The translations under genes and the position numbers were made by a program. A stretch of DNA of 64,000 bases. Source: Nitrospirota bacterium. GTDB taxonomy: Bacteria; Nitrospirota; UBA9217. A model generated the notes under the pieces. It searched no databases and was not told the DNA's origin. It saw only the letters and a program-made list of their open reading frames with translations. The DNA is taken from the NCBI GenBank assembly GCA_035516965.1, contig DATIZR010000093.1, forward strand, positions 43,255-107,254. The letters are read 5' to 3'. Position 1 is the first letter of the stretch, and every line of letters begins with the position of its first letter. Positions 24,902 through 46,658 of this stretch are shown in pieces.

Positions 24902-24911
24902 GGCATGAGCT

Positions 24912-27900: not shown

Positions 27901-28538
27901 CGGTGATGAAAAAAGGAGAGGATTATTTCCTTCTGGGGAGGGAAAAGCTCAAAGAAACGAGTGATCCTCAAGCCCTCTACGAACTCGCAGTTCAGGCGGG
28001 CGAGCTTGACCGGTTTGATGACGCCATTGAGCTGTGGGAACAATTTCTGGGCATGCGGGACGTTCCCCCTGAGCTTTTCCTGCGAGCACACATCAATCTG
28101 GGGTATGCTTTCGTTCAACGAGGGCGATACGATGATGCGTTTTCCATATCCAAAAAGGCGATAGCGCTTGCGCCGGATGCCCCGGGTGCTATCATGAACT
28201 ATTCGCTGGCGGAGCTTTGGCGGGGAGACCCGCAAAACGCCGTTCCGCTTCTTGAGGATCTTCTCAAATCCACACCGGATCATCCTCCCGCAATAGGAAT
28301 GCTTGCAATAGCCTCGCTCATAGCAGGGCAGGCCGATTCTGCACGGCGTTCCTTTGACCAATTACGAACCCAGGGCTTTCTTCATGAGCTTTATCTGCTG
28401 CATCATGTACAGAAGCTTACGGAAGCAGGGAGGACCGACCGCGCCATCGTGATGCTGGAGAACACCGCTGCTGCCGGCTTAGGAACGGCAAAACTGAATA
28501 CCGTGCTGGAGGAATGCCGGAGACGTTCTATGAACTGA
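24912..28538 (+). CDS. multidomain fusion protein: sulfotransferase - GT2 - TPR - second GT2 - TPR (1208 aa)
   Basis: IAGMHRSGTSMV P-loop sulfotransferase motif. GT2 #1 ISIVILTFNQ...FVDNGSTDGT...LLNNDV. TPRs. GT2 #2 LTVCMIVKNEE...VVDTGSTDRTKGLA...LDADEVI, paralogous to the GT2 of the upstream gene. TPRs. Confidence 0.7.
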   Translation: MTIHDRKDDRINVPVCIAGMHRSGTSMVAKLLHQSGLYLGKDDELLGPASDNPDGFWENIQFVRINDELLLKAGGAWDLPPDMRNGWGNIPGLGSLREKAQKTVHQFEMHGPWGWKDPRNSLTAEFWQDIIGKEHLRFVICVRNPLEVARSIHKRSYNSFIFGLNLWHQYNRAVMDLTSPSQRMITHYDSFFSDPEEELNRLLVFAGIPAMQSAVRSACSHISTSLRHHSSSGHDLIKAGASAKLVDLYEELCAQSGPVYQRTCSSAVSKTAPPPERTISNFPGKKGFISIVILTFNQLTYTRECVESIRKHTSEPHEIIFVDNGSTDGTVKWLKELIKKNDNYALIENTTNLGFSKGCNQGIKESSGEYILLLNNDVVVTEDWLSGMLECLNNAPDVGIVGPMTNSISGPQMVAHVDYSSPDQLAAYARKFRDEHRHRRIPLRRIVGFCMLFRRDLVERIGSLDESFGTGNYEDDDFCLRSALAGCRNFIAGDVFIHHHGSRSFVGNNIHYGSAMSGNRKIYNSKWGAVRADTTPGKNLLVIQALGKADELHRKDQSDTALTVLIDALKYAPDDGRIYSHLTNILLEIKQYEQALDVIDRAPHHDTDAHWLCLAGYCREGLASYEEAAELAARALALRPGYASALNLQGVIAFRNEARASAEPFFRQAMAADPGYGEPYTNLGVLLWSQGDQQAGLNLLERGFILAPVSPDASTLYHSAATASGAFNDAERNFREACSLYPDLRRTCFLLIDLLLKQDKYREALALTHDAMIAFGIDDGILSAALDIISKLGSPDALRAKKGSDTLTVCMIVKNEEAHLLKCLMSIESLADEIIVVDTGSTDRTKGLARSFGAKVFDVPWTGDFSEARNVSLDKASGGWIFVLDADEVISPKDHDAIRKLISSTKKAPAAYAVTTRNYISAMNITGWTMNKGEYPAEETGSGWKPSTKTRLFTNDPRIRFENRVHELVESSLAKIGITSKPCDIPVHHYGKLKEETVMKKGEDYFLLGREKLKETSDPQALYELAVQAGELDRFDDAIELWEQFLGMRDVPPELFLRAHINLGYAFVQRGRYDDAFSISKKAIALAPDAPGAIMNYSLAELWRGDPQNAVPLLEDLLKSTPDHPPAIGMLAIASLIAGQADSARRSFDQLRTQGFLHELYLLHHVQKLTEAGRTDRAIVMLENTAAAGLGTAKLNTVLEECRRRSMN

Positions 28539-28581
28539 CCTTGGAGGAAGAAGTTCTGGCAAGGTTGATTGTTCACACACT

Positions 28582-31500
28582 ATGTCACAGACCATTAAAA
28601 AATTGCTTTCCAAGGGCCTTTCACTGCACCGCAGCGGTGATTTTGTGCAGGCTGAGCGATCCTATCGCACCGTACTGTCTCAGGACCCTGGCCAGTCGGA
28701 TGCTCTCTACCTCCTCGGTATGATCGCACTGCAGCGTGCCGACAATGTCCGTGCTGTTGAGCTTATTTCGAAAGCACTTGAGCGGCATCGCACCACACCG
28801 GAATATCATGCGAACCTTGCCATAGCCCTTCACAGCCTCGGCAGGCATGAGGAGTCGGTTGTTCATTGCCGTGAAGCGCTTGCTTTTCGCCCGGACCAGT
28901 TTTCTGTCCTTAATACGCTGGGCAATGCTCTTATGGCACTAGAACAGCGTGAGGAGGCTCTTGAGTGCCTGCAGCGGGCAGTCAAGCTTAAACCCGACAG
29001 CCTAGAGATTAATTATAATCTCGCCAATGCGCTCAGAGTTATCGGACGATCTGAAGAGGCGGCAGAACGCTACGGTGTCGTGATAAATCTGAAGCCGGAC
29101 CACGTTGAGGCCATATATAACCTTGCAAATCTTCAGAGAAAGCTGTCTCAGCATGCCAATGCCCGGGACAGTTATCTTTCTGTTCTGGCCCTGAAACCGG
29201 ACCATGCAGATGCAATGTGCGGTCTGGCCGACATGCTCCACAAGTACGAGGAGTACGAAAAGGCGGAGACCTATTACCGATCTGCCCTATCCTTGAAGCC
29301 GGACACTGCCTTGGCATATAACGGACTCGGGAATACCTTGCGCCTGCTTGGGAAACTGGACGAAGCGCTGGACTGCTATCGCCGGGCACTGGAGGTCCAA
29401 CCCCAGGCGGTGGCATACTATTGCAATATCAGCAATGTGCTTTTTGACAGGGGACAGCTCGACGAGGCCGTTGAAAGTTGCGAGAGAGCGCTCACAATAC
29501 GGCCCGACTTTCCGGAGGCTCACTGGAATATGGGACCGGCCCTTGTGGCAAAAGGCGATCTTGACAGAGGGTGGCAGAAATATGAATATCGGTTGTCGAT
29601 AAAGGATGCTCAGACAACCTCATTCACCTATCCTGACTGGGACGGCTCCTCCCTTCAGGGAAAAACACTTCTTGTCTATACCGAGCAGGGCGTAGGCGAT
29701 GAGATAATGTTTGCCTCTTGCCTGCCGGATGTGATCAACGAAGCAGGGAGGTGTATTGTGGAATGCGATGCCCGCCTGGCACCACTTTTCAAGCGGGCAT
29801 TTCCCAGAATATATACGATCCAGCGAGGGAAAGGCGCTGACCACTACCCAAAGGAATTGCCGTTACCAAACTGTAAGGTGGCCATGGGAAGTCTTCCCCG
29901 TTTTTACCGGTCTTCGTTGAAGAGTTTCCCTCACCAACACCATTATCTGACAGCTGATCCTGCGGCAGTAGCACATTGGAAAGATCGGTTCAATTCCCTG
30001 GGTTCAGGGCTAAAGATCGGCATCTCGTGGCGAGGCGGGAAAATAGCCGTCGTACGCCGCACACGCTCGACCAGCCTCGATCAGTGGAAGGATTTATTGT
30101 TGATGAGGGATGCCTGTTTTATCAATCTGCAGTATGGCGACTGTAAAAATGAGATCCAGGACATTCACACAAAGTTGGGCGTAACGATCCATGACTGGGA
30201 TGATTCAGATCCGCTTACCAACCTTGATGATTTTGCGGCTAAAATATCTGCGCTCGATCTGGTCATTTCTGTGGACAACTCGACGGTGCACCTGGCCGGC
30301 GCTCTGGGTGTTCCTGTCTGGACACTCCTCACCTTTGGTTCTGATTGGAGATGGATGAGAGACGTTGAGGATACCCCCTGGTATCATTCCATGCGGCTCT
30401 TGCGACAGCCCGTTGCCGGAGACTGGGGCGCAGTTTTCAGCCGTGTTACTGCCGGTCTTACTCAAGCTCATGCGAATAGAAAGGTGGTAATGACCGTGGA
30501 ACGCTCCTTCAGAAACAGGAGCGGTTACCAGAATAGAAGCTGCGGCAGGGTTGGACTTTTGAACGACACAACGTACTGGTACCATTGGGGATGTACCGGA
30601 ACCAGCAGAGGGATACTCAGGGCGATCGCAGAACGGGGCTACGTGGTCAACAAAATACCGATAACGGGAATAGACCAGTGCACGCACACACCACAGAACA
30701 TACGCGACTTTGATGACCCCGAATTCTTTCGTGCTTTTTCCAAGGCGAACAGCTGGATGATGCGGGAACTCCGGGATGCGGACATTGTCGTGGTCAATGG
30801 AGAAGGGTCGCTGCATGGTATTAATTCATATACGCTAAAGCTTTTGTATCTCATCTATGCCTCAAAGATGCACCTCAAAAAACAGGTTCAGATAATAAAC
30901 CATTCGTGCTATCCCGACGATTCCCTTGAGGTCGTTGACCCGGCAGCCTGGAAGCTTTACAAAAAGGTATACAATGCAATTGATTTTGCGGCTATCCGAG
31001 AGCCGCTCAGCCATGAATTATTGACGCGTAACGGAGTTTCTGCGGAATTGAGCTTTGACTGCCTTCCTCTCTATATTAAGAAAACATATGACCGCTCTGG
31101 TGTTCAGTCGGACGGCTCGATCGTGATTGCCGGCTCGGTAATACTGAACGACTGCCTGCCATCCTTTGCCAAATTTCTCCGGATAATGCATGGCAAGGGG
31201 CATGTCATTAAAGTCCTGATCGGTGCAAATTTGCGTCCGGCACGGGATGATAAGCTTTTTGTTCAGGGGCTTACCGAGGCATGTCCGGATGCATGGTCCC
31301 GCGTTCGAGCTGAATCTCTTGATGCCTGGCTTGATACCATTGCACAGGCATCTGTCCTGGTCTCAGGACGCTTTCATCACACGATCGCGGCATCAATGCT
31401 GGGTACGCCCTGTATCCTGCTCGGGAGCAATACTCCGAAGAATGCGGCGCTTGCCCAGGTGGTCGGAATCGATCCGCCATTATCCTGGGCCGACCCTGCA

Positions 31501-31662
31501 CTTGCGGAAATACTGGTTACGAGAACCGAGGACGCGCTCAAACGGCCTGATCAGTTCAGGACCACCAATGATACCCGTGATCGCATGTGTCAACTCGCTG
31601 AACGGAACTTTATAGGGCTTGAGAAATTTAAGAGGGGATACGATATTCGTGAAGCCCGGTAG
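28582..31662 (+). CDS. multidomain fusion protein: TPR repeats - GT9-like (heptosyltransferase-fold) glycosyltransferase - polysaccharide pyruvyl transferase domain
   Basis: At least 8 TPR units. GT9 motifs [14 protein letters not shown] and [23 protein letters not shown]-terminal [10 protein letters not shown]...[20 protein letters not shown] matches PS_pyruv_trans (CsaB/WcaK) signatures. Confidence 0.65.
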
Positions 31663-33445
31663 AAATGATCCTTGCCCCTGCGGCAGCGGAAAAAAATACA
31701 AGAAGTGCTGCGAAGGCTACGACCGTGTCAAGGATGCTGCAGAAATTCGGCAACAACCTTCCGTGTCAAGCCTCCTTCAGAGGGCAGTTGATTCTCATAA
31801 TGCAGGCAGACTCTCTGAAGCAGAGGCAATTTACCGTGGTATTCTCGAAAAGGTCCCCCGAAATGCTGATGCCCTGCATCTTCTGGGGATGATTGCCCAC
31901 CAAAAAGGAAACAACGCCGAAGCTGAACAGATGATAAGAGCCGCCATATCTTTGGACAGCTCCGTTGCGGCATTCCATGTTAACCTTGGAAAGGTCCTCA
32001 AGAAGACGGACCGGAAACATGAATCTCTTGACTGCTATCGGAAAGCGCTGTTGCTTCAACCAAACATGACTGAAGCCATCTATAATCTGGCCAATGAACT
32101 CTGCGCACGGGGGGAATATGATGAGGCGGTACAGCATTACAGGAATGTCATCAACATTCAGCCCGATCATTCCTATGCGTGCAATAATTTAAGCCTTGCT
32201 CTCAGGAGCATGGGGCAAACAGAGGAAGCCCTGCACTATGTAACACGGGCATTGAACAGAGACCCGGGGAATGTTGAGGCGTATAACAATCTGGGAGTTC
32301 TCCTGTCAAACAAGGGACAGCTTGAGGCATCCATTGACGCTCTCAACAAGGCTATTTCGATCAAGCCCGACTACAAGGACGCGCATTGGAATCTGGCCCT
32401 GCCCTTGCTGCAACTGGGTGACCTCGACACTGGCTGGAAAAAATATGAACTGAGGGACCTCAAGAGGGATGCTTCTGCCAGGAAGTCATTCCCCTATCCA
32501 CGGTGGGACGGATCTTCATTGAACGACAAAACCTTGTTCGTTTATGCCGAGCAGGGAGTTGGTGATGAGATCATGTTCGCTTCAGTGTTGATCGACGTCA
32601 TACCTCGGACTAAACGGTGCATTGTTGAATGCAATGACCGTCTTGTTCCCCTTTTTTCGCGCTCTTTTCCTGAAGCACGGGTGATCCCTATGGTCAAAGG
32701 GGCACTTCCGGAGCTTCTGCATACTATCGACGTGTCGGCACCAATCGGCAGCCTGCCGATGCATCTGCGTCAGGACCTGAGAGGTTTTCCTCGACGGAGA
32801 TCATATCTGGTTGCAGACCCTGATAAGATCTCTGACTGGCAGAACCGCTTTCGGGCCCTCGGGGACGGCCTGAAGGTCGGCATATCGTGGAGAGGTGGCA
32901 GTGAGGCCAGCGTGCGACACTTGCGTTCAACAAAGCTTGACCAATGGACAGAACTTTTTAGAGTACCTGGCGCTCACTTCATTAACCTTCAATATGGTGA
33001 CTGCAGGCTGGAGATCGAAGAAGCAAAAGAACTCCTGGGGACAACTATTTACGATTGGAAAGATGCTGATCCCCTTAAGGATCTCGATAATTTCGCTGCC
33101 CAGATCTCGGCCCTTGATCTGGTCATTACCGTGGATAACTCGACCTTGCATATGGCGGGAGCTCTGGGCGTTCCTACCTGGGCAGTGATCCCTAAAGGAA
33201 ACAACTGGCGATGGCTGCAGGACGTCGAGGATACGCCGTGGTATCCCAGTGTGCGCCTATTCAGCCAGACGAAACTTCATAACTGGACAGACGCATTTTT
33301 ACGCCTAAGGGACTTGCTTCACCGTGCAGCAAGCGGCGGTACAACCATTGAACAGTTGACCAAGTCTGTGGCTGCTTCTTATCAAGATCGTCGGCCAGCT
33401 TTAGAATCAAACGTTGAGAAGACGCATATCAAAATGACCGCCTGA
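31649..33445 (+). CDS. SEC-C motif - TPR repeats - GT9-like glycosyltransferase fusion protein
   Basis: N-terminal [18 protein letters not shown] (SEC-C zinc motif), TPR units, [38 protein letters not shown] at 31649 overlaps the upstream stop (ORF track start ATG 31619 is an alternative). Confidence 0.65.
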
Positions 33446-33475
33446 TGATGTTGGCCTCAAGAGAGGATAGCTGAT

Positions 33476-36346
33476 ATGAGAACAGGAAGAAACGACCCTT
33501 GCCCATGCGGCAGTGGTAAAAAATTCAAAAAATGCTGCGAACCGACGGAAACGTCACCATCCGCGGCAGTCCCAGGCCCGGCTCACTCTTTGGCAGGCAT
33601 GCTCCGGGAAGCCATTGACCATCACCAGACAGGTAGGCTGGGTGATGCAGAAAGGCTCTACCGGTCCATCCTTGAGAAAAGACCGAACGACGCCGACGCA
33701 CTTCATCTCCTCGGCGTGATCTGCCACCAGATCGGCAACCTTGCTGAAGCTGAGACCCTGATCAAAAGAGCGATCGCTGTTGACAACAAGGCCGCGTTAT
33801 TCCATGTGAACCTCGGGAATGTGCTCAAACAACGAGGCAAGCAGGATGAAGCCATGGCCTCGTTCCGCAAGGCTCTCTCGCTTCAGCCTGATCTCGCCGA
33901 AGCGCACTATAACCTGGCAAACGAGCTTTACGCAAACAATGATGTGGAAAAGGCGGTTACCCATTACACAAAGGCTTTGCGGACGAATCCTCAAATGGCA
34001 GAAGCACATTATAACCTCGGCATCGCATTGCAGACGCAGGACAGGATAGAGGAAGCGATATCAAGCTATTCGCGCGCCGTCGCGATCCGGCCCGATCATC
34101 ACAATGCTCACTATAATCTCGGCATTCTCTTCCAGGAGATGGAAAGGTATAAGGATGCCGCAATGCACTATGACCGTGCCTTGAAATACGATCCGGGCAA
34201 TGCGAACGCGCACTATTATCGGGGCAATGCGTATCTGGAGCTCGATCGGTATGACACAGCCGAGGCATCCTTCAGATCTGCAATAGCACTTCGGCCGGAT
34301 TTTGCTGATGCCCACAACGATCTCTCGGTTGCCTTACGAAAACAGGGACGTACGGAAGACGCCCTTGCTTCCGCGCGACGCTCCCTGGAGATCACCCCCG
34401 GCTTTGCGGCCTATAATAATCTGGGCATAACATACCGGGAGGATGGAAGAATTGCAGAAGCTATCGAAAATGCTAAAAGAGCGATCGCACTAAAACCGGA
34501 CTCTCCTGATGTTCAATGGAATCTCGCGCTTGCCCTCCTGCATCATGGTGAACTCGCACCGGGTTGGCAAAGGTACGAATGCCGTGCTTTGAAAACTGAC
34601 TCTAGCCTGAGGGTGTTCCCCTATCCGCGCTGGGCTGGAAGCCCCCTGAAGGACAAGACATTATTTATCTTTGCCGAGCAGGGCATAGGCGATCAGATCA
34701 TGTTCGCATCCCTTTTTCCCGATATCATGCGGCGTGAGCCGAAACACTGCATAGCAGATTGCGACCCGCGGCTGGTGCCGCTCTTTGCCAGATCATTTCC
34801 CGGAGTAGCGGTCATTCCCGCGGCTAGAGAGACCCTGGTGGATAGACTTCCTGCCATTGATCTGGCCATCCCCATGGGCAGCCTTCCGATGCATCTGCGC
34901 CCTGATCTTATAAGCTTTCCGCAGCAACGCTCATTTCTGGTTCCCGATGCCGAAAAGGTCGCACTCTGGAGCAGCCGTTTCAACAGGCTCGGAACGGGGT
35001 TGAAGATTGGAATATCCTGGAGGGGAGGCAAGGATGCCAGCGTCCGCAATCTGCGCTCGACAACGCTTGCGCAGTGGTCCCGTCTTTTCACGGTGCCGGG
35101 TTTACAGTTCGTGAACTTACAATACGGGGACTGCGCTCAAGAGCTTCTGACCGCTAAAAAGGACCTTGGCGTCACGATCCACGATTGGGACGACGCAGAC
35201 CCGCTCAAGGACCTCGACGGCTTCGCGGCACAGATTGCGGCCCTGGACCTTGTGATCTCCGTGGATAACGCCACCGTGCACATGGCCGGAGCGCTTGGTA
35301 TTCCGGCATGGGTATTATTGCCCAGGGGCTGCGACTGGAGATGGATGAAGGACTTTGAAGACAGCCCGTGGTATTCTTCGGTCAGGCTGTTCCGTCAACA
35401 GGCGCACGGAATGTGGGGAGAGGTCTTCGAGCCGGTCGCCGAATCACTGAGAACAATGACTCCCCGGGCGCTGGCCTCAGGGAACAATGACTGTTTTTTA
35501 CCACCGGTCAAGAGGTCCTATCTGTCCGCAACATCATCAGTCGAAACGATGCATTCGAAAACAGCGATCAGCAATCTCAACCTGCGACTTTCTGAGATCA
35601 TGCAGAACAGGATATCGGTAAAAACAGCGGTCGAAGTTAGAGAAATAGATTCACTGTCCGCGACTGAGCAGAGCCTCTTTGACAGGCCTATCTTTATCCT
35701 TGGAGTGCCGCGTTCGGGGACCTCAATGGTTGCAGGCTTATTGCATGAATGCGGTGCATGGGCAGGGAAAACCGTGCTGGGATCACCGGAAAATCCGAAG
35801 GGGTTCTACGAGCATATTGTTCTAAGAGAAACGATGAATAAAAAAATTCTTTCTTCTCTTAACTGCGACCCCTTAGGGGTCAAGGCCCTCCCGGAAATTG
35901 ATCAACTGCCGGATATCCCGGATCTGGGCAATATCGTAAAGCAGGTTATTCAAGCTGAGGGCTACACTGAAGACAGGCCGTGGCTATTTAAAGATCCCAA
36001 GTTGTCCCTTATATGGCCTATATTGAGAGCGGCTTTTCCCTCCGCGCGTTGGATAATCGTGAGAAGAAAGAATGAGGATATTATCAGGTCATGCTTGAAC
36101 ACTCATTTTATGGTCCGTCATTCGACTGATCCGTTGTTCTGGCGCTCCTGGATCGATGAGTACCTCGATAGACTGGATAGGTTGAAAGGATCCGGCGTAT
36201 GGTGGAGAGAAGTATGGCCGCATGAGCTTGCCTCAGGAGACTTCGGCGTCCTGCATCAACTGATCAACGAACTTGATCTGAACTGGAACGAACAAATCGT
36301 CGAGGAATTTATTCTGCCGGGCTCATGGCATGCTTCAACAACATGA
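33476..36346 (+). CDS. SEC-C motif - TPR repeats - GT9-like glycosyltransferase - C-terminal sulfotransferase fusion protein
   Basis: [21 protein letters not shown] units, FAEQGIGDQIMFAS, ISVDNATVHMAGALGIPAWVLL, then PIFILGVPRSGTSMVAGLL P-loop sulfotransferase domain. Confidence 0.65.
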   Translation: MRTGRNDPCPCGSGKKFKKCCEPTETSPSAAVPGPAHSLAGMLREAIDHHQTGRLGDAERLYRSILEKRPNDADALHLLGVICHQIGNLAEAETLIKRAIAVDNKAALFHVNLGNVLKQRGKQDEAMASFRKALSLQPDLAEAHYNLANELYANNDVEKAVTHYTKALRTNPQMAEAHYNLGIALQTQDRIEEAISSYSRAVAIRPDHHNAHYNLGILFQEMERYKDAAMHYDRALKYDPGNANAHYYRGNAYLELDRYDTAEASFRSAIALRPDFADAHNDLSVALRKQGRTEDALASARRSLEITPGFAAYNNLGITYREDGRIAEAIENAKRAIALKPDSPDVQWNLALALLHHGELAPGWQRYECRALKTDSSLRVFPYPRWAGSPLKDKTLFIFAEQGIGDQIMFASLFPDIMRREPKHCIADCDPRLVPLFARSFPGVAVIPAARETLVDRLPAIDLAIPMGSLPMHLRPDLISFPQQRSFLVPDAEKVALWSSRFNRLGTGLKIGISWRGGKDASVRNLRSTTLAQWSRLFTVPGLQFVNLQYGDCAQELLTAKKDLGVTIHDWDDADPLKDLDGFAAQIAALDLVISVDNATVHMAGALGIPAWVLLPRGCDWRWMKDFEDSPWYSSVRLFRQQAHGMWGEVFEPVAESLRTMTPRALASGNNDCFLPPVKRSYLSATSSVETMHSKTAISNLNLRLSEIMQNRISVKTAVEVREIDSLSATEQSLFDRPIFILGVPRSGTSMVAGLLHECGAWAGKTVLGSPENPKGFYEHIVLRETMNKKILSSLNCDPLGVKALPEIDQLPDIPDLGNIVKQVIQAEGYTEDRPWLFKDPKLSLIWPILRAAFPSARWIIVRRKNEDIIRSCLNTHFMVRHSTDPLFWRSWIDEYLDRLDRLKGSGVWWREVWPHELASGDFGVLHQLINELDLNWNEQIVEEFILPGSWHASTT

Positions 36347-36375
36347 AAGCCCCTGCAAGAGAGAGGGGCTTCTTC
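36347..36375. terminator. candidate bidirectional hairpin between convergent genes
   Basis: aagcccct / aggggctt 8-bp inverted repeat with 9-nt loop immediately after the stop at 36346, followed by ttcttc. Confidence 0.3.
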
Positions 36376-36398
36376 AAGGCAGCATGTGACAGGGTACT

Positions 36399-36782
36399 TC
36401 AGATAGCAGCGGGTGAGCCTCTGAGACCAGCCGCAATATTGATGTTGATGTTGATAATGGCCGCAAGCTTTTCCGGAACGGGCTGCGCCATGACCTCGAG
36501 AATGCGTTTGTCGATGAAGAGACTGAGCGACAGGATGTCCTCCCGGATCTTTCTGGGCATCGCGTTGTCCGAACCGGCAAGCTCGCTCTGGAATATGCTC
36601 CAGATTCGCTGGTTATACCGGAGCGCCTCGTCGAGACGTGCATCCCGGTCGGTTGCATCCCAGTTATTCTGCACATTCTGCAGCATGAGGGCGGCTTTCG
36701 TCAATACCGACGCCTCCAGCTCACGACCTGACTGAGTTGTCTTTTGGACCGTCCGGTATGCTTCCAGTTGATTTGCGAGCAT
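36399..36782 (-). CDS. flaF: flagellar biosynthesis regulator FlaF
   Basis: LEAYRTVQKTTQSGRELEASVLTKAALML...RYNQRIWSIF matches the FlaF family pattern known from Caulobacter-type flagellin regulation. Overlaps flbT by 62 nt. Confidence 0.6.
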   Translation of the reverse strand: MLANQLEAYRTVQKTTQSGRELEASVLTKAALMLQNVQNNWDATDRDARLDEALRYNQRIWSIFQSELAGSDNAMPRKIREDILSLSLFIDKRILEVMAQPVPEKLAAIINININIAAGLRGSPAAI

Positions 36783-37161
36783 TGTTCAAGACCTCCTGTT
36801 CATATTCTATCAGTTTCTGCGTCAGCTTCAGCGCCTGGTAGTAACGGCTGCTCAGGATGTTTGCGCTGATCTGGTCTATCATGCCCAGCGTGCTGGGCGC
36901 CGCGGTCACAACATCCCGCACGAGCTTCCAGTAGCTGTTGTGGTGCACAACAAGGTTTTTCTCGTCCACATACATGAGCTGGACGGTGAAGTAGATGCGC
37001 TTGCAGGGCGTGTCCGCGTCCTGTTCGCGGAGAATGTCCTTGTCCCTCAGTATCGGAACATTGTTCTCGACCATCAGGTCGCACCGGCTTCCGCCGTTCT
37101 GGACGACCGCTCCGCCGATGATCAGACGTTCATGGGGTTTTAAATTGATTTTCAGGGCCAT
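36721..37161 (-). CDS. flbT: flagellar biosynthesis repressor FlbT
   Basis: MALKINLKPHERLIIGGAVVQNGGSRCDLMVENNVPILRDKDIL...ADTPCKRIYFTVQLMYVD is closely similar to the FlbT family N-terminus (MALKxxLKPGERIxxGxxVIxNG...VPILRxKDIM...ADTPxKRIYxxVQLMYID). Confidence 0.75.
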   Translation of the reverse strand: MALKINLKPHERLIIGGAVVQNGGSRCDLMVENNVPILRDKDILREQDADTPCKRIYFTVQLMYVDEKNLVVHHNSYWKLVRDVVTAAPSTLGMIDQISANILSSRYYQALKLTQKLIEYEQEVLNNARKSTGSIPDGPKDNSVRS

Positions 37162-37198
37162 AGCCTTCCGAATCCGTCAAACCGAAAATATATCAGCT

Positions 37199-37681
37199 TT
37201 ATATTTTTACATTCACGATAGTTCCATGCTGCACGTGGTCCGCTGTCTGCGCTCGCTTCGGACTGATCGTTTCCTTATATTGCTTGAGGTCCGCGAGGGC
37301 GGCCGAAACTTCCCTGTCCGTGGACTTATCCGTCAGTTTGTTCGCCGTCAGTTTTTCTTTTAATTCAGGTGGGAGGGAAGACTTCCCTATCTCTTCCTGA
37401 ACTCCCTTGATCCCCTTGATCAGATCGAGTCTCTGAGGACTTCCCAGAGGGAAGAACGGTGGAAAACTGAACATGATCGTTTTCAGCTGATCTTTAATGT
37501 AGTTGGTATTCGTCAAACTGGTCATTACCTGCGGCTCACGGATACCGGAGCTGCCTGTTGCTGATGAATTGAAGGTCTCCGATGATCTGGTCTGTGTTGA
37601 AACAGGTGAATTGCCCTTTCTCGCAGACAGTTGAGAACCATCCGCCTGGCTTGCCAGCATGTTAATGCCATTGATATCCAT
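37199..37681 (-). CDS. hypothetical protein (flagellin-locus associated, possibly FlaG-like)
   Basis: 160-aa ORF with low-complexity polar N-terminus and a conserved-looking C-terminal half. Sits between flagellin and flbT on the same strand. No confident family assignment. Confidence 0.4.
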   Translation of the reverse strand: MDINGINMLASQADGSQLSARKGNSPVSTQTRSSETFNSSATGSSGIREPQVMTSLTNTNYIKDQLKTIMFSFPPFFPLGSPQRLDLIKGIKGVQEEIGKSSLPPELKEKLTANKLTDKSTDREVSAALADLKQYKETISPKRAQTADHVQHGTIVNVKI

Positions 37682-37699
37682 AATTGCGCCTCCGGAGTT

Positions 37700-37732
37700 T
37701 AGAAGAAGACGGGAGGCGAATCACCTCCCGTC
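37700..37732 (-). terminator. intrinsic terminator downstream of flagellin gene
   Basis: Perfect 9-bp GC-rich inverted repeat gacgggagg / cctcccgtc (37708-37716 / 37724-37732) with 7-nt loop. On the minus strand the stem is followed by TTCTTCT. Confidence 0.55.
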
Positions 37733-37751
37733 TCGGTCCCAGATCCGTAAA

Positions 37752-38582
37752 CTAGGCAAACAGCCTCAGTACTGATTGCGCTGCCTGCGAAGAGAGGCTC
37801 AGTGCCGTTGTGCCCAGAGACTGCCTGGTCTGCAGCATCAGCATGTTCGCACCTTCTTCGTTCATGTCAGCGAGCGTCAAGCTGTCAGAGCCCGCGGTGA
37901 GGGTATTCACCATTTGGGTCGTGAAGTCCTGGCGTGCCTGAATGATGCTGAGACCGGCCGAAAGTGCACCAGAGGTCGTTCTCAGCGTGGTCTTCGCCGT
38001 ATTGAGCGCGGTTATGGTAGTATTGATGTCCGAAACACTCGAAGAGCTGGTTATGCCCACCGTACCGGTGTCGATCCCGAGGTCAGCCGATTTTGATGCA
38101 ATGGATTTAACGGTGAGCGATGAGGTATTGTCCTCGTTAAAGTTCACGACGAGATCGCTCGAACCATTCAGCAGGTTTACGCCCTGATAATTGGCGTCGG
38201 TGACAACCGTATCCAGCTGGGCCATGAGGGTCGAATACTGCATCCCGATGACCGACAGTGCCGTAGTATCCGTCGTGGAAAGTGCTTGCTGGGCAAGACC
38301 TTTGGCAGCATCGATAAGCGTGCTGATCGTCGTGATACCGTTGTTTGCGACCTGGATCGCCTGGATACCCTGGCCCATGCCGTCCTTCAGAGCGGACAGG
38401 TCCGCTGCGCGGCCGTTCAGGGCCTGTGCTGCAAAGAATGAAACGGGGTTATCCAGCGCGCTGTTGACCTTCTTGCCCGAGGACAAACGTTCCTGTGTCC
38501 TGTTGAGAAGATCGACGGTGCTCTGAAGGCTGACGAGGTTGCTGCGCATTCCTGAGGTTAAGGTGATGTCATTGATAGCCAT
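37752..38582 (-). CDS. fliC: flagellin (short, 276 aa, Caulobacter-type)
   Basis: Flagellin N-domain (RLSSGKKVNSALDNPVSFFAAQ...IQVANNGITT) and C-domain (ANMLMLQTRQSLGTTALSLSSQAAQSVLRLF). AAGGAGA RBS. Perfect sigma28 promoter upstream. Confidence 0.8.
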   Translation of the reverse strand: MAINDITLTSGMRSNLVSLQSTVDLLNRTQERLSSGKKVNSALDNPVSFFAAQALNGRAADLSALKDGMGQGIQAIQVANNGITTISTLIDAAKGLAQQALSTTDTTALSVIGMQYSTLMAQLDTVVTDANYQGVNLLNGSSDLVVNFNEDNTSSLTVKSIASKSADLGIDTGTVGITSSSSVSDINTTITALNTAKTTLRTTSGALSAGLSIIQARQDFTTQMVNTLTAGSDSLTLADMNEEGANMLMLQTRQSLGTTALSLSSQAAQSVLRLFA

Positions 38583-38752
38583 GATAGTGTTTCTCCTTTT
38601 CTGGGATTATTTCCCCGGCAATTCTTGCCAGGGTGTTTAAAGCTGCCGCGTTCGTTGCGGCTAACGTGCTAAAGGCATCTGAGGGGCCTGTGTTCTTTCG
38701 TCTCCTTTCCGCCCGTATTTTCTTTTGCCTTCGCTTTCTGCATTCGTCCCTC

Positions 38753-38779
38753 TTATCGGCCGCGGGAGGGAAAACTTTA
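38753..38779 (-). promoter_or_regulatory. sigma28 (FliA) class promoter for flagellin: TAAAGTTT-N11-GCCGATAA
   Basis: Reverse complement of 38753-38779 reads TAAAGTTTTCCCTCCCGCGGCCGATAA, an exact match to the enterobacterial sigma28 consensus. About 170 nt upstream of the flagellin ATG. Confidence 0.7.
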
Positions 38780-38904
38780 ACGAAAAGCGCGTGGATCGCG
38801 GCTGTCCTGCTTCCGACTCCCGGGAAAAACGCCTAAAGTTTTCCGCGAATCGTCCGATATGAGGACCAAAGGCATGGCCGGCCGCGGTGCCGGCGGAGGC
38901 GCAG

Positions 38905-39102
38905 ATGACCGTCTTTCCGTTTCAGTTAACCGAGGTGATGCACCTCTACAACAGGGTCTCCAAGCTCAAACCGTCAACGATCCTCGACAAAGAGCCCGGC
39001 GAACCGAAGGATGTCGTGAACATATCAGCCGAAGGGAAGAAGCGGCAGATCCTCGACCAGGCCCGGAACGAGGTGCTGGACCAGATCCGGAAGACGAAAT
39101 AA
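38905..39102 (+). CDS. small hypothetical protein (65 aa) divergent from flagellin gene
   Basis: ATG at 38905 preceded by GGAGG. No confident homology (weak resemblance to FlgM-like anti-sigma factors). ORF track starts at 38887. Confidence 0.35.
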   Translation: MTVFPFQLTEVMHLYNRVSKLKPSTILDKEPGEPKDVVNISAEGKKRQILDQARNEVLDQIRKTK

Positions 39103-39121
39103 TAACGGCGGACCATGAGAC

Positions 39122-39724
39122 TTGGATAAAAAAGCGTTTCGCATACTCGTTGCCGATGATGACGACATCGCCCTCGACGTCGTGAGCATGCTCCTCTCCC
39201 GGGAGGGCTACTCGGTCGCTCCCGTCAAGGACGGCCTGGAGGCCATCGACCGGCTCCGGCTTGAGGAGTTCCACCTGGTCATTACCGACCTGATGATGCC
39301 CGGGGCCGGCGGCATCGAAGTCCTGAAATATGCCTCCCGGAGCAATGCCGATATCGCCGTAGTCATCCTGACGGCCTACGGCACCCTCGATACCACGCTC
39401 GAGGCAATCAAGGAAGGGGCCTATGATTACCTCACCAAGCCCTTCCGGACCCAGGAGATCTCCATCATTGCCGAGCGCGCGTACCAGCGGGCCCTGCTCA
39501 TCGCAGACAACCGGGACCTGAAGCGGAGCCTGCGCGACACCTACCGTGATATGGAGATCATCAAGACGGTCGCCGCGAGCGGAAATCCCGAGGTGACCAC
39601 GGCCTGGCTCGAACGGATCGAGAGGCTCAGGACCATGAACGTGCTGCTCGCCGGCGAAGCCGAGGTGCTGAAGGAAAGGCTGGTCAGGGGAAATGGAAAA
39701 GGGCAGAATATTAATAGTGGATGA
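39122..39724 (+). CDS. CheY-like response regulator (stand-alone REC with C-terminal helical extension), TTG start
   Basis: ILVADDDDIALDVV...LVITDLMMPGAGG...LTAYGT...KPF receiver motifs. Confidence 0.75.
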   Translation: MDKKAFRILVADDDDIALDVVSMLLSREGYSVAPVKDGLEAIDRLRLEEFHLVITDLMMPGAGGIEVLKYASRSNADIAVVILTAYGTLDTTLEAIKEGAYDYLTKPFRTQEISIIAERAYQRALLIADNRDLKRSLRDTYRDMEIIKTVAASGNPEVTTAWLERIERLRTMNVLLAGEAEVLKERLVRGNGKGQNINSG

Positions 39725-41935: not shown

Positions 41936-42706
41936 ATGGACCGGGCAAGCATCATAGGACTGTTGGTCGGCCTGACCGCGCTGTTCGGAGGAAACCTCCT
42001 GGAGGGCGGCAGGGTCGACTCGATCCTCCAGCCCACCGCCGCGCTCGTGGTCTTCGGCGGCACGCTGGGTGCCACGCTCCTGAGCTTCCCTGCGCGGGAT
42101 GTCTATAGTGCCGTGGCCGCTCTCCGGACCGTGTTCCGCGAGGACGGGTCGGAGGCCGAGGCCCTGATCCACGACATCATCCGGTTCTCCCATATCGCCC
42201 GCCGGAACGGCTTCGTAGCGCTGGAGCCCGAGGTTCCCCGGCATGCCAACGCCTGCCTCCGGAAAGCGCTCAAGCTGGCGATCGACGGCATGCTCCCGAA
42301 ACTCCTGACGGATACCATGGAGCGGGACAACGCGACCTACGAGGACCGGGAACGGCGCATTGCCAAGGTGTTCGAAACGGCCGGCGGCTTCGCCCCCACC
42401 ATCGGCATCATCGGCGCGGTCCTGGGGCTGATCCGCGTCATGGAGAACCTTTCCGATCCTGCGAAGCTCGGCGCCGGCATCGCCGTGGCCTTCGTCGCCA
42501 CGATCTACGGCGTCGCCTCGGCAAACCTTGTTCTCCTGCCCATCGCCCGCAAGCTCATGAACCGTGCAAACCGGGAGCTTGCGCTCCGCGAGATGATCCT
42601 GGACGGGGTGATCGGGATCCAGGCGGGCGTCAACCCGCACTATCTCGAGGAAAAGCTGAGGGCCTTCGTGGAACGTGATGGACATGCGAAAAAGCAGGAA
42701 GCATGA
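41936..42706 (+). CDS. motA: flagellar motor stator protein MotA (set 1)
   Basis: 4-TM MotA/TolQ/ExbB topology. Conserved C-terminal TM3-TM4 region (PTIGIIGAVLGLIRVM...AFVATIYGVASANLVLLPIA). Confidence 0.85.
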   Translation: MDRASIIGLLVGLTALFGGNLLEGGRVDSILQPTAALVVFGGTLGATLLSFPARDVYSAVAALRTVFREDGSEAEALIHDIIRFSHIARRNGFVALEPEVPRHANACLRKALKLAIDGMLPKLLTDTMERDNATYEDRERRIAKVFETAGGFAPTIGIIGAVLGLIRVMENLSDPAKLGAGIAVAFVATIYGVASANLVLLPIARKLMNRANRELALREMILDGVIGIQAGVNPHYLEEKLRAFVERDGHAKKQEA

Positions 42707-42836
42707 GGAGCGAAGGATGCGATAAGCCGCCGGTTTCCGGGTCGGGCACAGAATGACGGGTCGGGGTACAAGTCGTACGAACCATGACGTGGTGCATATT
42801 CTCAACGGTAACGCTTGAGAACCGCGGATACACGCT

Positions 42837-43526
42837 ATGCGAAGAAAGCGCAAAACCGAAGACCATGACAATCCCGACCGTTGGGTCGTGTCCTACGCCG
42901 ACTTCATCACGCTCCTGTTCGCCTTCTTCACGACGCTCTACGCGATCAGCCACGTCGATCTGGGCAAGCTGGAGCGGTTCACCGGCTCCATGCAGTCCGC
43001 GTTCAAGACGAAACAGCGCAACGCGATCGACACGACGGTGATCGATGGCATCAGGCCGCCGGTCTACGCCGATGTGCGGCTCGAAAAAGAGTTACGGGAG
43101 GAGATCGGGAAATCTGGTATAATAGAGGGCGTTGTCGTCAGCCGTGACGACCGCGGCGTCATCGTCTCGTTCGAGGACGCGCTGCTCTTCGAGAGCAACG
43201 AGGCGGCGCTCAAAAAATCGGCGCGGCCGATCATCGCGATCGTTGCCGCGGCCGTCAGGAAGGCGGGCCGGACGGTCGTCATCGAGGGGCATACGGACAA
43301 CCTGCCGCTCCGGAACAGCCGTTACTCGTCGAACATGGAGCTGTCGGCCGCCCGCTCCGCAAGCACCTTCGCCGCCCTGCTGAGCGAAGACCCCGGCGCA
43401 CAGGACCGGATTTCCACGGCGGGGTACGGCGAATACCGGCCAATCGCCTCAAACGCGACCTTCGAGGGCCGGGCGCGCAACAGGAGGATAGATATCATCT
43501 TTGTCTCCCGGAAGGACGGAACATAA
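42837..43526 (+). CDS. motB: flagellar motor protein MotB (set 1), OmpA-like C-terminus
   Basis: WVVSYADFITLLFAFF plug/TM with conserved Asp. OmpA-like peptidoglycan-binding domain (IEGHTDNLP...LSAARSAS...RNRRIDI). Confidence 0.85.
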   Translation: MRRKRKTEDHDNPDRWVVSYADFITLLFAFFTTLYAISHVDLGKLERFTGSMQSAFKTKQRNAIDTTVIDGIRPPVYADVRLEKELREEIGKSGIIEGVVVSRDDRGVIVSFEDALLFESNEAALKKSARPIIAIVAAAVRKAGRTVVIEGHTDNLPLRNSRYSSNMELSAARSASTFAALLSEDPGAQDRISTAGYGEYRPIASNATFEGRARNRRIDIIFVSRKDGT

Positions 43527-45006
43527 GATCCTCGTTGTCGAGGACCGGCCCGAACAGAGGTCCCGCATCAGCGCGGCCTTTGCCCTGCACGGGAAGGGCC
43601 TGGCACTGCAGTTCTCGCCGTCGCGGGCCGCGGCAGTGGAAGCCGTGAACCGGGAGAACATCGATGTCCTCTTCTTCGGCGGTGACGGGGCCGTGCCTGA
43701 TTTTGTGAGGAGCGTCCTCGCGGACGGCCAGCGGAACACGGTCCTCATCATGATAACCGGCACGGATGATGAAGCGGCAAGGCTGGCGGCGATCCAGTCC
43801 GGCGTGGATGACTGCGTGCCCGCCGGCGCTGAGGGCATCGCCGGCTTCCCGGATGCCGCCCGGCGCGCCCTCGCGCGACGCGACGGGGAGCGGCGGCGCG
43901 CGGAGGAGCTGGACCTCGTAATCCGGAGCCAGGTCCAGTGGATGGCGATCCTCGATGCCATCACCGATTATATATTCGTCATCGACGACCAGCAGCGGCT
44001 GCTCAAGGTGAACAGCGCCTTCGCGGCGGTTCTTCAGATGCACCCCCGCGACGTGGTGGGGAAAAAGTGCTCTGATTTCTTCGGCACCGAGATCCTGAGC
44101 GAGTGCTCGACAAAGGACCTCGAGCACGACGGTAAACCGCGTACCTATGAAAAGGCCATCGGCGAAGAGACGTACCAGATCAGTATCTTCCCCCTCCAGG
44201 AGGCGGATCGCAGCCTGTCGATCCAGGTCATGAAGAACATCACCGAGCTCAGACGGCTCAAGGACCAGCTGCACCACGCGGACAAGCTTGCCTCCATTGG
44301 CCTGCTCGTTTCCGGCGTCGCTCATGAGATCAACAACCCCTTGACCGGCACCATCGCCTACACCGAGCTGCTCACGATGAAGGTGCCCGACGAGAGCATC
44401 AAGCGGGACCTGAACAAGATCCTCGAGAGCGCGGAGCGGTGCAAGAAGATCGTCGACAACCTCCTCACCTTCTCGCGCCAGCGAACACCGGCGAAGAGCC
44501 TCGAATCCGTCAACGACATCGTTGACCGGGCAATCGAACTGCGGGGTTACTGGCTCCGTTCGAGCGGCATCGAGGTCGTAAAGGACTACGACGCCCTTAC
44601 CACGGTTTTCGTCGATGCGCAGCAGCTGCAGCAGGTCATCCTGAACATCCTGCTCAATGCGGAGCAGGCAATCGTCGGGGCCGGCCGGAACAGGGGCAGG
44701 ATCACGTTCACTACGCGGTACCAGCGGGCGGACCGCAGGATTTTCATCCGCATCGCCGACAACGGGCCGGGGATCCCGCAGCGCATCATCTCCCGGATCT
44801 TCGATCCCTTTTTCACGACCAAACCCGTCGGCGTGGGGACCGGTCTGGGGCTGTCCATATCCCACGGCATCGTGAGCGAGCACGGAGGGACCATCCGTGC
44901 CGAAAATCTTGAAGAAGGAGGCGCCGCGTTCATCATCGAGCTCCCGACGGGGGCAGGTACGCTCCAGGAGGGATCGGAGCAGAGACGAAGCGGTCCGCAC
45001 AAATAA
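43501..45006 (+). CDS. sensor histidine kinase with N-terminal REC-like domain and PAS domain
   Basis: ILVVEDRPEQR REC-like. PAS (ILDAITDYIFVID). H-box GVAHEINNPLTG. HATPase (LLNAEQA, DNGPGIP, GTGLGLS). Confidence 0.8.
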   Translation: MSPGRTEHKILVVEDRPEQRSRISAAFALHGKGLALQFSPSRAAAVEAVNRENIDVLFFGGDGAVPDFVRSVLADGQRNTVLIMITGTDDEAARLAAIQSGVDDCVPAGAEGIAGFPDAARRALARRDGERRRAEELDLVIRSQVQWMAILDAITDYIFVIDDQQRLLKVNSAFAAVLQMHPRDVVGKKCSDFFGTEILSECSTKDLEHDGKPRTYEKAIGEETYQISIFPLQEADRSLSIQVMKNITELRRLKDQLHHADKLASIGLLVSGVAHEINNPLTGTIAYTELLTMKVPDESIKRDLNKILESAERCKKIVDNLLTFSRQRTPAKSLESVNDIVDRAIELRGYWLRSSGIEVVKDYDALTTVFVDAQQLQQVILNILLNAEQAIVGAGRNRGRITFTTRYQRADRRIFIRIADNGPGIPQRIISRIFDPFFTTKPVGVGTGLGLSISHGIVSEHGGTIRAENLEEGGAAFIIELPTGAGTLQEGSEQRRSGPHK

Positions 45007-45009: not shown

Positions 45010-45867
45010 ATGTTCGTCATTGTCGGAATAGGTATCGTGCTCGGGGCGGTCATCGGTGGCTTTCTCATGGAAGGGGGAAACCTGCACATTCTCTTCCAGC
45101 CCTCCGAGGTCGTCATCATTTTTGGCGCCGCCCTGGGCGGTTTTCTGATTTCCTCTCCGTCCAAGATCGTCGGCATCGTCTCGAAGAACGTCCTGACCAT
45201 CGTCGGCGGGAAGAGCCACTCCAAGCGGCAGTACCTCGAACTCCTGTCGCTCCTGTACCAGCTCTTCTCGAAGATCCGGAAGGAAGGGCTGGTCTCCGTC
45301 GAGTCAGACATCGAGAACCCCGACCGGAGCCCCATCTTCCAGAAATTCGGCAGCGTGCTGTCCAACCACCACGTGGTGAACTTCATCTGCGACAACCTGA
45401 AGGTGATCGTCACGGCAAACGTGCCTCCCCATGAGCTGGACAACCTCATGGAGATCGAGATCGACACCCATCACCATGAGGCAATGATCCCCTCGCACAG
45501 CGTCGCGCGCGTCGCCGACGCCCTGCCCGGCCTCGGCATCGTGGCGGCGGTCCTCGGCGTGGTGCTCACCATGGGCAAGATCGACCAGCCGCCGTCCGTG
45601 CTCGGCCACAGCATCGGCGCGGCGCTCGTCGGCACGTTCCTCGGCGTGCTCATGTGCTACGGGTTCGTCGGCCCCATTGCCGCCAATCTGGAGCACCAGG
45701 CCCAGGAGAAGGGCTTTTTCCTGCAGGTCATCAAGGTCGCCCTCGTGGCGTTCGTCGGCGGCTCCGCACCCCAGATGGCGGTGGAATTCGGCAGACGGGC
45801 GATCCCGGATGTTGAAAAGCCGACCTTCAGCGAGCTGGAAAACCAGGTCAGGGGCAAGGCAAAATGA
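45010..45867 (+). CDS. MotA/PomA-family stator protein (set 2)
   Basis: 4 TM helices, LPGLGIVAAVLGVVLTMG...GAALVGTFLGVLMCYGFVGP conserved MotA C-terminal channel region. Confidence 0.8.
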   Translation: MFVIVGIGIVLGAVIGGFLMEGGNLHILFQPSEVVIIFGAALGGFLISSPSKIVGIVSKNVLTIVGGKSHSKRQYLELLSLLYQLFSKIRKEGLVSVESDIENPDRSPIFQKFGSVLSNHHVVNFICDNLKVIVTANVPPHELDNLMEIEIDTHHHEAMIPSHSVARVADALPGLGIVAAVLGVVLTMGKIDQPPSVLGHSIGAALVGTFLGVLMCYGFVGPIAANLEHQAQEKGFFLQVIKVALVAFVGGSAPQMAVEFGRRAIPDVEKPTFSELENQVRGKAK

Positions 45868-46658
45868 GCGACCAGAAGTCCAAGATCATCATTAAAAAGG
45901 TGAAGAAGGTATCCGGCGGAGGAGGACACGGCGGGAGCTGGAAGGTTGCCTATGCCGACTTTGTGACGGCCATGATGGCCTTTTTCCTGCTCCTGTGGCT
46001 GATCACCATGGTCGCGCCCGAGAAGCGCGCGCGCATGTCGAACTACTTCAAGAGCTTCAGCATCTTCCAGCACAGCGGCACGTCGTTCATGGAGAAATCA
46101 AGCGAGCTGTTCAATCAGGCCGGCGAATCGCAGGACAAGCTCTCGGCCGACGCCCTGGCCAAGTTCCAGACCCGCAGCAAGGAGGAGGTCAAGGAGTCGA
46201 TCAAGAAGGCCATTGAGGTCAAGCTGGGGGATATCAAGGACCAGATCATGGTCGATGTGTTCGAGGGGGGGGTGCGGATCCAGCTGGTGGACAAGGCGGG
46301 CAAACCCATGTTCGACCTCGGCTCGCCCGAACCCACGCCGCTCGCCACCCGGATCATGCAGGTGCTGGGCGACCAGATCAAGGCCATGCCGAACCCGGTC
46401 TCCGTGGAGGGCCACACCGATTCCCTGGCCTTCCGGTCGTCAGCGACGCGCGGCAACTGGGAGCTTTCCACCGAACGGGCGCTCTCGGCAAAGAAGCAGC
46501 TCGAAGGCTACGGCCTGAACCCCAACCGCCTGACCCGGGTCGCCGGCTACGCCGATACGGTCCCTTTCATCCAGGAAGACCCCGAGGACCCGCGGAACCG
46601 CAGGATCAGCATCATTCTCCTCTTTCCCCAGGCCCCGCCCGCCATCTCTTCCCGATAG
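45864..46658 (+). CDS. MotB/PomB-family stator protein (set 2), OmpA-like
   Basis: WKVAYADFVTAMMAFFLLLW TM with Asp. OmpA-like (VEGHTDSL...LSTERALS...RNRRISI). 4-nt overlap with upstream motA-like gene. Confidence 0.8.
   Translation: MSDQKSKIIIKKVKKVSGGGGHGGSWKVAYADFVTAMMAFFLLLWLITMVAPEKRARMSNYFKSFSIFQHSGTSFMEKSSELFNQAGESQDKLSADALAKFQTRSKEEVKESIKKAIEVKLGDIKDQIMVDVFEGGVRIQLVDKAGKPMFDLGSPEPTPLATRIMQVLGDQIKAMPNPVSVEGHTDSLAFRSSATRGNWELSTERALSAKKQLEGYGLNPNRLTRVAGYADTVPFIQEDPEDPRNRRISIILLFPQAPPAISSR

Follow-up and report, generated by a model that had tools for sequence, protein, structure and literature searches.

In the alphaproteobacterium Caulobacter crescentus, FlbT represses flagellin translation via the 5′ untranslated region (UTR) of the mRNA, and flagellin export relieves this repression (PMC7591256; PMC3930126). 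For Caulobacter FlaF, current opinion favours a role as flagellin secretion chaperone (PMC7591256, citing Ardissone 2020) over that of the simple activator that a first-pass annotation of the DNA studied here had called it. Here, we analysed an flbT-flaF gene pair in a metagenome-assembled genome (MAG) of a Nitrospirota bacterium, within a 64,000-nt stretch of contig DATIZR010000093.1 (hereafter the window; coordinates are those of the window, with strands given as (+) or (-)). We consider it quite probable that this is a genuine flbT-flaF pair in which a conserved flaF start with its own Shine-Dalgarno (SD) sequence is embedded in flbT, that the length of the resulting overlap is neutral, and that the repressor/chaperone model applies to the two proteins by homology.

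The flbT-flaF pair and its embedded flaF start

Both genes lie on the (-) strand. The flbT coding sequence (CDS; 36721..37161) specifies 146 aa, of which residues 3-125 align with positions 1-125 of the 125-position Pfam profile PF07378 (148.9 bits, E 9.1e-44). The flaF CDS (36399..36782), whose start codon ATG 36782 lies within flbT, specifies 127 aa, of which residues 7-120 align with positions 3-113 of the 113-position profile PF07309 (114.4 bits, E 3.5e-33). These hits bear out the family assignment of the first-pass annotation, which had named searches with the two profiles as the check. FlaF also scores above the NCBIfam equivalog cutoff of NF009435 (127.7 vs 91); FlbT scores below those of NF009432 (134.9 vs 153) and NF001995 (104.9 vs 125), and by these profile scores it belongs to a divergent, non-alphaproteobacterial branch. 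The window FlbT is 100% identical to a MAG protein named by NCBI as 'flagellar biosynthesis repressor FlbT [Nitrospirota bacterium]'.

Sequence searches of the PDB found no solved relative for FlbT or for FlaF. The AlphaFold model of FlbT has a mean pLDDT of 84.6 and a folded part of about residues 1-132, and that of FlaF is an antiparallel four-helix bundle (pLDDT 82), whose best natural PDB matches in Foldseek are FliS structures (5maw_E, 1orj, 1ory and 5xef; TM 0.60-0.72). A toxin-antitoxin reading of the pair was rejected, since the one toxin-antitoxin screen that picked up FlbT counted it among the false positives (PMC2446400).

For the comparison of loci, one genome per species was scanned, and the best 80 of more than 586 matching places were taken up. 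In 75 of these about 80 species loci flbT and flaF are adjacent, and these 75 loci are the set behind the counts out of 75 given below. The carriers among the best 80 matches belong to Nitrospirota/Thermodesulfovibrionales and to many Desulfobacterota, namely Syntrophales, Smithella, Syntrophorhabdus, Desulfobacterales and Geobacteraceae. The pair is common across both phyla, and with a Nitrospirota MAG as the host, the earlier description of FlbT and FlaF as alphaproteobacterial hallmarks is too narrow. In the paper library that was searched, FlbT and 'Deltaproteobacteria' occur together in no paper.

In the open reading frame (ORF) listing, flaF is read in the +1 frame relative to flbT, and the two genes share 62 nt (36721..36782, (-)) that encode FlbT residues 127-146 with the stop codon as well as FlaF residues 1-21. 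The identical overlap is present in independent gene calls for the source contig and for a relative with 78% FlbT identity, confirming the 62-nt overlap in different frames that had been noticed at first pass. Whether this overlap was real or the product of a mis-called flaF start had been left undecided there. The first start codon of the flaF ORF is ATG 36782, and the SD sequence AGGAGG (36792..36797, (-)) stands 9 nt 5′ of it (-15..-10), within the FlbT codons Gln122-Glu123-Val124. In the window, flbT starts at ATG 37161 and flaF 379 nt further on. Across the 75 loci this distance is 376-400 nt, most commonly 379, and the frame is always +1; flaF starts with ATG in 37 of the loci and with GTG in the other 38, and an SD core lies 9-12 nt 5′ of the start codon in 74.

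The SD sequence of flaF is encoded by a conserved FlbT motif, Tyr-Glu-(Gln/Glu/Lys)-Glu-Val, which reads Tyr-Glu-Gln-Glu-Val in the window. The two codons within the SD sequence end in G in 73/75 (97%) and 71/75 (95%) of the loci, the Glu inside it being GAG in 71/75, whereas the Glu codon that precedes it is GAA in 60/75 and carries a third-position G in only 14/75 (19%). This synonymous third-position bias in flbT is best explained by selection for the flaF SD sequence. Furthermore, FlaF residues 1-26 are conserved, with Y9, T16, R20 and E23 invariant, and since flbT has already ended by FlaF codon 10 in most loci, this conservation can come only from translation in the flaF frame. Together, these comparative data indicate that the flbT/flaF overlap is genuine and does not result from a mis-called flaF start.

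Two other accounts of the junction were weighed against this conclusion. In one, flaF would be initiated 3′ of the flbT stop, at the TTG of codon 27 (36704..36702) or the ATG of codon 33, leaving no overlap. The TTG has a GGAGG 8 nt upstream in the window, and AlphaFold confidence is low for FlaF residues 1-6 and 11-18, but we judge this account highly improbable: the 26 residues that it removes would include all four invariant positions, the Pfam and NCBIfam profiles already align from FlaF residues 5-7, and the conserved region codes in the flaF frame only wherever the overlaps are short. The downstream codons are also seldom start codons among relatives (codon 27, as TTG, in 10/58 loci; codon 33, as ATG, GTG or TTG, in 9/58), against an upstream start that keeps its SD sequence, with the synonymous-site bias, in all loci but one. 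The other account, programmed +1 frameshifting that yields an FlbT-FlaF fusion protein, would fit the +1 frame of flaF and the overlapping flbT, yet we give it practically no credence, with flaF having a conserved start codon and SD sequence of its own, no conserved slippery or shift-prone site in the junction alignment, and no fused FlbT-FlaF among about 3,700 homologues, where 'FlaF' proteins of 173-180 aa are N-terminally extended calls.

As a separate observation, many public 'FlaF' entries of 172-180 aa (P0129, P0133, P0138, P0147 and others) are probably N-terminally over-extended calls that run back into flbT in the flaF frame, an annotation error opposite to the one feared in the first-pass annotation.

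Overlap length and expression of the pair

An overlap at the flbT-flaF junction is the rule in the relatives, occurring in 75/75 loci with lengths of 8, 11, 20, 26, 29, 32, 38, 41, 44, 47, 62, 107, 113 or 131 nt, of which 29 nt is the mode (23 loci). A codon-by-codon table of the junction showed that the flbT stop is formed by the wobble T of one flaF codon and the AA, AG or GA that begins the next. Most often the stop arises at the invariant Tyr9 of FlaF, written TAT, when the next codon specifies Lys, Arg, Glu or Asp. The window has TAC-CGG instead of TAT-AGR at Tyr9-Arg10, so that no stop arises there and flbT is read on to CGT-GAG at Arg20-Glu21, a stop site also used in two other species (loci L005 and L028). 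Reading past Tyr9 adds 11 residues to FlbT.

Several properties of this extension argue against a function. FlbT residues 133-146, which lie in the overlap, have pLDDT values below 50 and are predicted to be disordered, the last predicted helix ending at residue 132. Among relatives FlbT is 128-192 aa long, with no conservation beyond about residue 130. Within the overlap, the FlaF wobble positions are the first codon positions of FlbT, and they are about as variable as those outside it: wobble entropy at FlaF codons 6, 8, 9, 12, 16, 19 and 20 is 1.0-1.96 bits, for example 1.85 at Leu6, 1.79 at Ala8 and 1.90 at Arg20, compared with 1.95 at Ala24 and 1.85 at Leu34 outside the overlap. With its disordered tail, varying length and free wobble positions, the FlbT extension does not look functional. 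Thus, the existence of the overlap, with its embedded ribosome-binding site, is selected on the evidence of these alignments, its length appears to be a neutral by-product, and the 62-nt length is without demonstrable meaning. Likewise, the range of 8-131 nt, the disordered tail and the free FlaF wobble positions give no sign of the 'antagonistically tuned' translation that the first-pass annotation had tentatively attached to the 62-nt overlap.

An adaptive role of the long overlap, either through a functional FlbT tail or through an FlbT:FlaF ratio tuned by ribosome interference, seems to us unlikely. In its favour, the 146-aa FlbT form is kept in a clade down to about 78% identity and in a third species (L028), and ribosomes elongating on flbT must cross the flaF initiation site. 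This crossing, however, takes place in every relative regardless of overlap length, and the length itself varies among species without phylogenetic consistency. The conserved FlaF frame accounts for the sequence of the tail, the predicted disorder and the 128-192-aa range argue against a functional tail, and the FlbT first codon positions that coincide with FlaF wobble positions are unconstrained. Neutral length therefore remains our preferred reading. The 62-nt overlap should be kept in the annotation and not 'corrected'; more generally, overlap length in such pairs can be a neutral outcome of wobble choice in the downstream frame, and the varying lengths offer a natural experiment on whether long overlaps matter.

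Between the flagellin gene and flbT lies ORF160 (37199..37681, (-)), encoding a conserved hypothetical protein of 160 aa with the motif FPPFFPLG. It has no NCBIfam match and no Pfam match even at E <= 5; its 15 relatives are all annotated as 'hypothetical', and homologues stand directly upstream of flbT in about 14 loci. ORF160 is the probable third gene of the transcription unit. As to promoters of its own for ORF160-flbT-flaF, the window scan found no sigma-28 match nearby, sigma-54 consensus matches were at chance level with none within 35.7-42.0 kb, and the single sigma-70-like match lies inside flaF, with none convincing 5′ of ORF160 or flbT. Just 3′ of the flagellin stop, a 13-bp G+C-rich hairpin with a weak U-tract (37706..37734, (-); -36.8 kcal/mol, z = -4.27) is predicted, probably acting as a leaky terminator or a 3′ stabiliser. 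With no recognisable promoter of their own and a hairpin with a poor U-tract, expression of the three genes by read-through is the simplest inference. A further, terminator-like hairpin (36350..36366, (-)) follows the flaF stop, ahead of the TPR-sulfotransferase gene that converges on flaF.

Two side observations concern the place occupied by ORF160. Its conserved motif, [YF]PPF[FL]PxG, recurs in mini-proteins of 63-67 aa at the same position in Syntrophorhabdus loci (L023-L025 and L037). In other lineages, a protein of 245-315 aa with flagellin-like termini (N-terminal LxTGKKIN and C-terminal QSQLLxLL) is encoded directly upstream of flbT (L009 2156-2998, L014 1252-2088, L017 2123-2998, L020 2267-2998, L026 2118-2993 and L005 3251-3997). 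From its termini and position, this flagellin-like protein could be a counterpart of the Caulobacter regulatory flagellin FljJ.

The flagellin leader and the proposed mechanism

The short flagellin gene (37752..38582, (-)) encodes 276 aa matching Flagellin_N (2.8e-16) and Flagellin_C (1e-3), and it is presumed to be the target of FlbT and, as protein, the client of FlaF. A same-strand flagellin gene lies upstream of flbT in nearly all related loci. In the window it is preceded by a sigma-28 (FliA)-type promoter (38753..38779, (-)), TAAAGTTT-N11-GCCGATAA, with 0 mismatches, in a scan that returned 3 matches at <=3 mismatches in the window against 0.21 expected by chance. From the end of the -10 element to the flagellin ATG there are 170 nt, in agreement with the 5′ UTR of about 170 nt estimated at first pass, and in about 45 species loci of both phyla a sigma-28 promoter is located 120-160 nt upstream of the flagellin ATG.

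The resulting leader of about 160 nt (38583..38745, (-)) comprises, from 5′ to 3′, an AAAGGAG box (38708..38702), a variable hairpin, a hairpin termed P3 with stem CCCUGGCA/UGCCGGGG and loop AGAAU, and an unpaired SD block, CCCAGAAAAGGAGAA. Among relatives, 35/40 leaders have the AAAGGAG box 21-27 nt from the predicted +1, where minimum-energy folds leave it mostly unpaired, and a P3-type hairpin with an AGAA(U) loop is shared 26-34 nt upstream of the AUG, followed by the SD block CCUAGAAAAGGAGAA. The P3 stem occurs in many compensatory variants (CCGGC/GCCGG, UUGGC/GCCAA, CUGAC/GUCAG, CCUGC/GCAGG, GGCC/GGCC and GGCG/CGCC). RNAalifold predicted no pairs on a crude whole-leader MAFFT alignment, in which the arms were misaligned; a gapless sub-alignment and a covariance model of the leader hairpin and SD block (R1) were used instead. 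R1 has a single match in the 64-kb window (38583..38635, 59.4 bits) and matches 70 related loci (e.g. L048 1249-1301 and L040 1238-1290), where it occurs on every flagellin paralogue of multi-flagellin loci, such as the three copies in L086; it has no match in four alphaproteobacterial loci. In the R1 alignment, which was fitted to the model, 89.7% of cells pair compared with 77.1% in shuffles, 0/500 shuffles reaching the observed value, and in the same fitted alignment 7/7 P3 pairs changed on both sides, with 22-45% of cells pairing in slid controls. For a 5′ helix around the GGA box, a heuristic search returned arms that were mostly GGUC/GACC or GGUC/GGCC, with too much noise for a claim of covariation. 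An Rfam cmscan of 36200..39200 at E <= 1 returned only a spurious sroE at the post-flagellin hairpin (21.7 bits, gathering threshold 51). Judged by this comparative evidence, the flagellin leader carries a covarying hairpin with an SD block that is conserved across two phyla and has no Rfam counterpart. Such a long, conserved leader is consistent with the post-transcriptional control of flagellin proposed in the first-pass annotation, it lends the predicted repressor function of FlbT indirect support, and it is a specific candidate for the RNA site bound by FlbT, which is still poorly defined.

The leader may instead be a CsrA/FliW-type target or an mRNA-stabilising element (a 5′ 'STAB-SD' with hairpins) rather than an FlbT operator, an alternative that concerns the leader only and that we hold to be possible but rather doubtful. 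The position and the mostly unpaired state of the AAAGGAG box, together with a second GGA in the SD block, would suit it, as CsrA-FliW control of flagellin mRNAs relies on such GGA sites, and FlbT/FlaF have been called a possibly analogous system (PMC4894983). On the other side, the 64-kb window and the fetched locus flanks, only a small fraction of each genome, contain no csrA, the loop of P3, the structured element with the best conservation, reads AGAA(U) and lacks GGA, and the leader is present on every flagellin paralogue next to flbT-flaF. Comparison of the FlbT N-terminus with CsrA was not significant (hhalign probability 0.24%).

In the mechanism that we propose, largely by homology with Caulobacter, sigma-28 would drive transcription of the flagellin gene together with its leader of about 160 nt, and FlbT, with unexported flagellin as a co-repressor, would bind the leader and block translation. 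FlaF, as a FliS-like chaperone, would bring flagellin to the export gate, and repression would be relieved. ORF160, flbT and flaF would probably be expressed by read-through of the post-flagellin hairpin, and the flaF ribosome-binding site embedded in flbT would ensure co-transcription and closely linked translation of FlbT and FlaF.

As for how closely the two are linked, a flaF start and SD sequence inside flbT, kept in 74/75 loci, is the structural arrangement of a translationally coupled pair. Structure-mediated coupling at flaF was rejected, as RNA folding around the start does not exceed that of shuffled sequence (z = +0.86). With this unstructured start and an flbT stop 60 nt past the flaF AUG, flaF is probably initiated directly at its strong SD sequence.

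A number of points weigh against this combined reading. The predicted lack of structure at the flaF start does not indicate coupling by ribosome-mediated unfolding, and termination-reinitiation is poorly served by a stop as far as 60 nt beyond the AUG, so that the 'coupling' may be no more than co-transcription with independent initiation. The sub-cutoff NCBIfam scores of FlbT mean that identical function is not guaranteed. The similarity of FlaF to FliS is weak in Foldseek (E 0.09-0.3), helical bundles designed de novo reach equal scores, and the four-helix bundle is a common fold. FlbT of Caulobacter needs the specialised flagellin FljJ, and the 64-kb window contains no second, FljJ-like flagellin. 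Another factor, for example CsrA, could be what binds the leader. To our knowledge, all work on FlbT and FlaF has been done in Alphaproteobacteria, and we know of no experiment on either protein from elsewhere.

A bolder version of the mechanism can be offered only tentatively, and we lean against it at present. Here, the leader of about 150 nt, made up of the sigma-28 promoter, AAAGGAG at +21..27, the covarying AGAA(U) hairpin and the CCUAGAAAAGGAGAA block, would be an undescribed cis-regulatory RNA family and the FlbT operator of Nitrospirota and Desulfobacterota, the overlap would fix the repressor:chaperone ratio, and ORF160, or the flagellin-like gene in other lineages, would fill the FljJ co-repressor slot. 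If true, the locus would carry a sigma-28-driven, non-alphaproteobacterial version of the FlbT/FlaF checkpoint. The leader and the unannotated ORF160 are the parts most worth following, the overlap itself being fairly ordinary.

Neighbouring genes and comparison with known systems

The flagellar region of the window contains fliK, an 18-kb block of TPR, GT2, sulfotransferase and pyruvyl-transferase genes, flaF, flbT, ORF160 and the flagellin gene, followed by response regulators, two motAB pairs, fliI, fliG, fliF and a sigma-54 activator. The 18-kb block (18624..36346, (+)) lies downstream of flaF in convergent orientation. The pair had been placed between a glycosylation island and a short flagellin; this context holds as stated, except that ORF160 separates the flagellin gene from flbT. 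The proteins of the island are 401-1208 aa long and combine TPR repeats with GT2, sulfotransferase or pyruvyl-transferase domains and N-terminal SEC-C motifs, and this architecture of TPR plus transferase is similar to that of flagellin glycosyltransferases of the FlmG class. Flagellin glycans may be sulfated, to judge by the sulfotransferase domains.

Besides the flagellin promoter, sigma-28-like promoters were found at 18541..18567 (+) and 38834..38860 (+), with 1 and 2 mismatches, respectively. The former precedes the first TPR gene of the island, and the latter, divergent from the flagellin promoter, precedes a 71-aa ORF, a response regulator gene and a response-regulator-GAF-HD (HD-GYP-like) gene. 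Their positions suggest a late flagellar regulon that includes the modification island and a possible c-di-GMP module. The tie between translational control and flagellin glycosylation, also proposed at first pass, would have its basis solely in gene neighbourhood and these shared sigma-28-like promoters. Elsewhere in the window, the two motA-motB stator pairs (41936..43526 (+) and 45010..46658 (+)) have a PAS histidine kinase gene between them (43501..45006), and the G+C content dips to 0.36 at 12001..14000, compared with 0.50-0.64 elsewhere, around an amine-oxidase/FAD gene (12008..13426), where the DNA may be foreign.

Like generic coupled gene pairs, flbT and flaF lie on the same strand, with the start codon and SD sequence of the second gene inside the first, an arrangement conserved across species. 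Coupling overlaps are usually 1 or 4 nt (ATGA, TAATG), whereas here they measure at least 8 nt, and 62 nt in the window, making termination-reinitiation at the AUG unlikely. FlaF shares with the FliS chaperone the modelled four-helix bundle fold (weak E, as given above) but no sequence similarity. The CsrA-FliW switch of Bacillus subtilis hag and Campylobacter jejuni flaA is alike in having a repressor on the flagellin leader that is relieved by export and GGA-containing boxes in the leader and at the SD sequence; it differs in that the protein families are unrelated by sequence, the window has no csrA and the P3 loop lacks GGA.

The alphaproteobacterial systems are the closest relatives. A tblastn search of plasmids and chromids gave 71 alphaproteobacterial records with 28-41% identity to FlbT. 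Annotated operons on such replicons likewise have a same-strand flagellin followed by a tightly joined FlaF/FlbT pair, but with flaF before flbT and with no match to R1. In Azospirillum argentinense, Salipiger abyssi and Sulfitobacter pontiacus the order is flagellin, flaF, flbT, with an 11-nt overlap, a 32-nt overlap and a 5-nt gap, respectively, at the flaF-flbT junction; flbT precedes flaF in the window and in 75/75 related loci. Both clades thus keep flbT and flaF closely joined, but in opposite order.

The Caulobacter system has the same two families, PF07378 and PF07309, encoded by genes that adjoin each other and a short flagellin of about 275 aa, and nearby flagellin glycosylation genes of TPR plus glycosyltransferase architecture, reminiscent of FlmG (PMC7591256). 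It belongs to a different phylum, with alphaproteobacterial FlbT only about 30-41% identical to the window protein, its gene order is reversed, and the window holds no equivalent of its second flagellin FljJ. In Caulobacter the two genes are described as contiguous but transcribed as separate units, with FlbT at a constant level through the cell cycle and FlaF cell-cycle regulated (PMC3930126; Schoenlein & Ely 1989, as cited in PMC7591256); unlike this, the embedding of the flaF ribosome-binding site in flbT points to a fixed co-expression regime here. Caulobacter flagellin genes depend on sigma-54 and FlbD (PMC3930126), and the window promoter is instead a perfect sigma-28 consensus. The Nitrospirota/Desulfobacterota module is thus set apart from its alphaproteobacterial counterpart by having flbT first, a flaF start that is embedded in every locus, a predicted sigma-28 flagellin promoter and a deeply conserved, structured leader.

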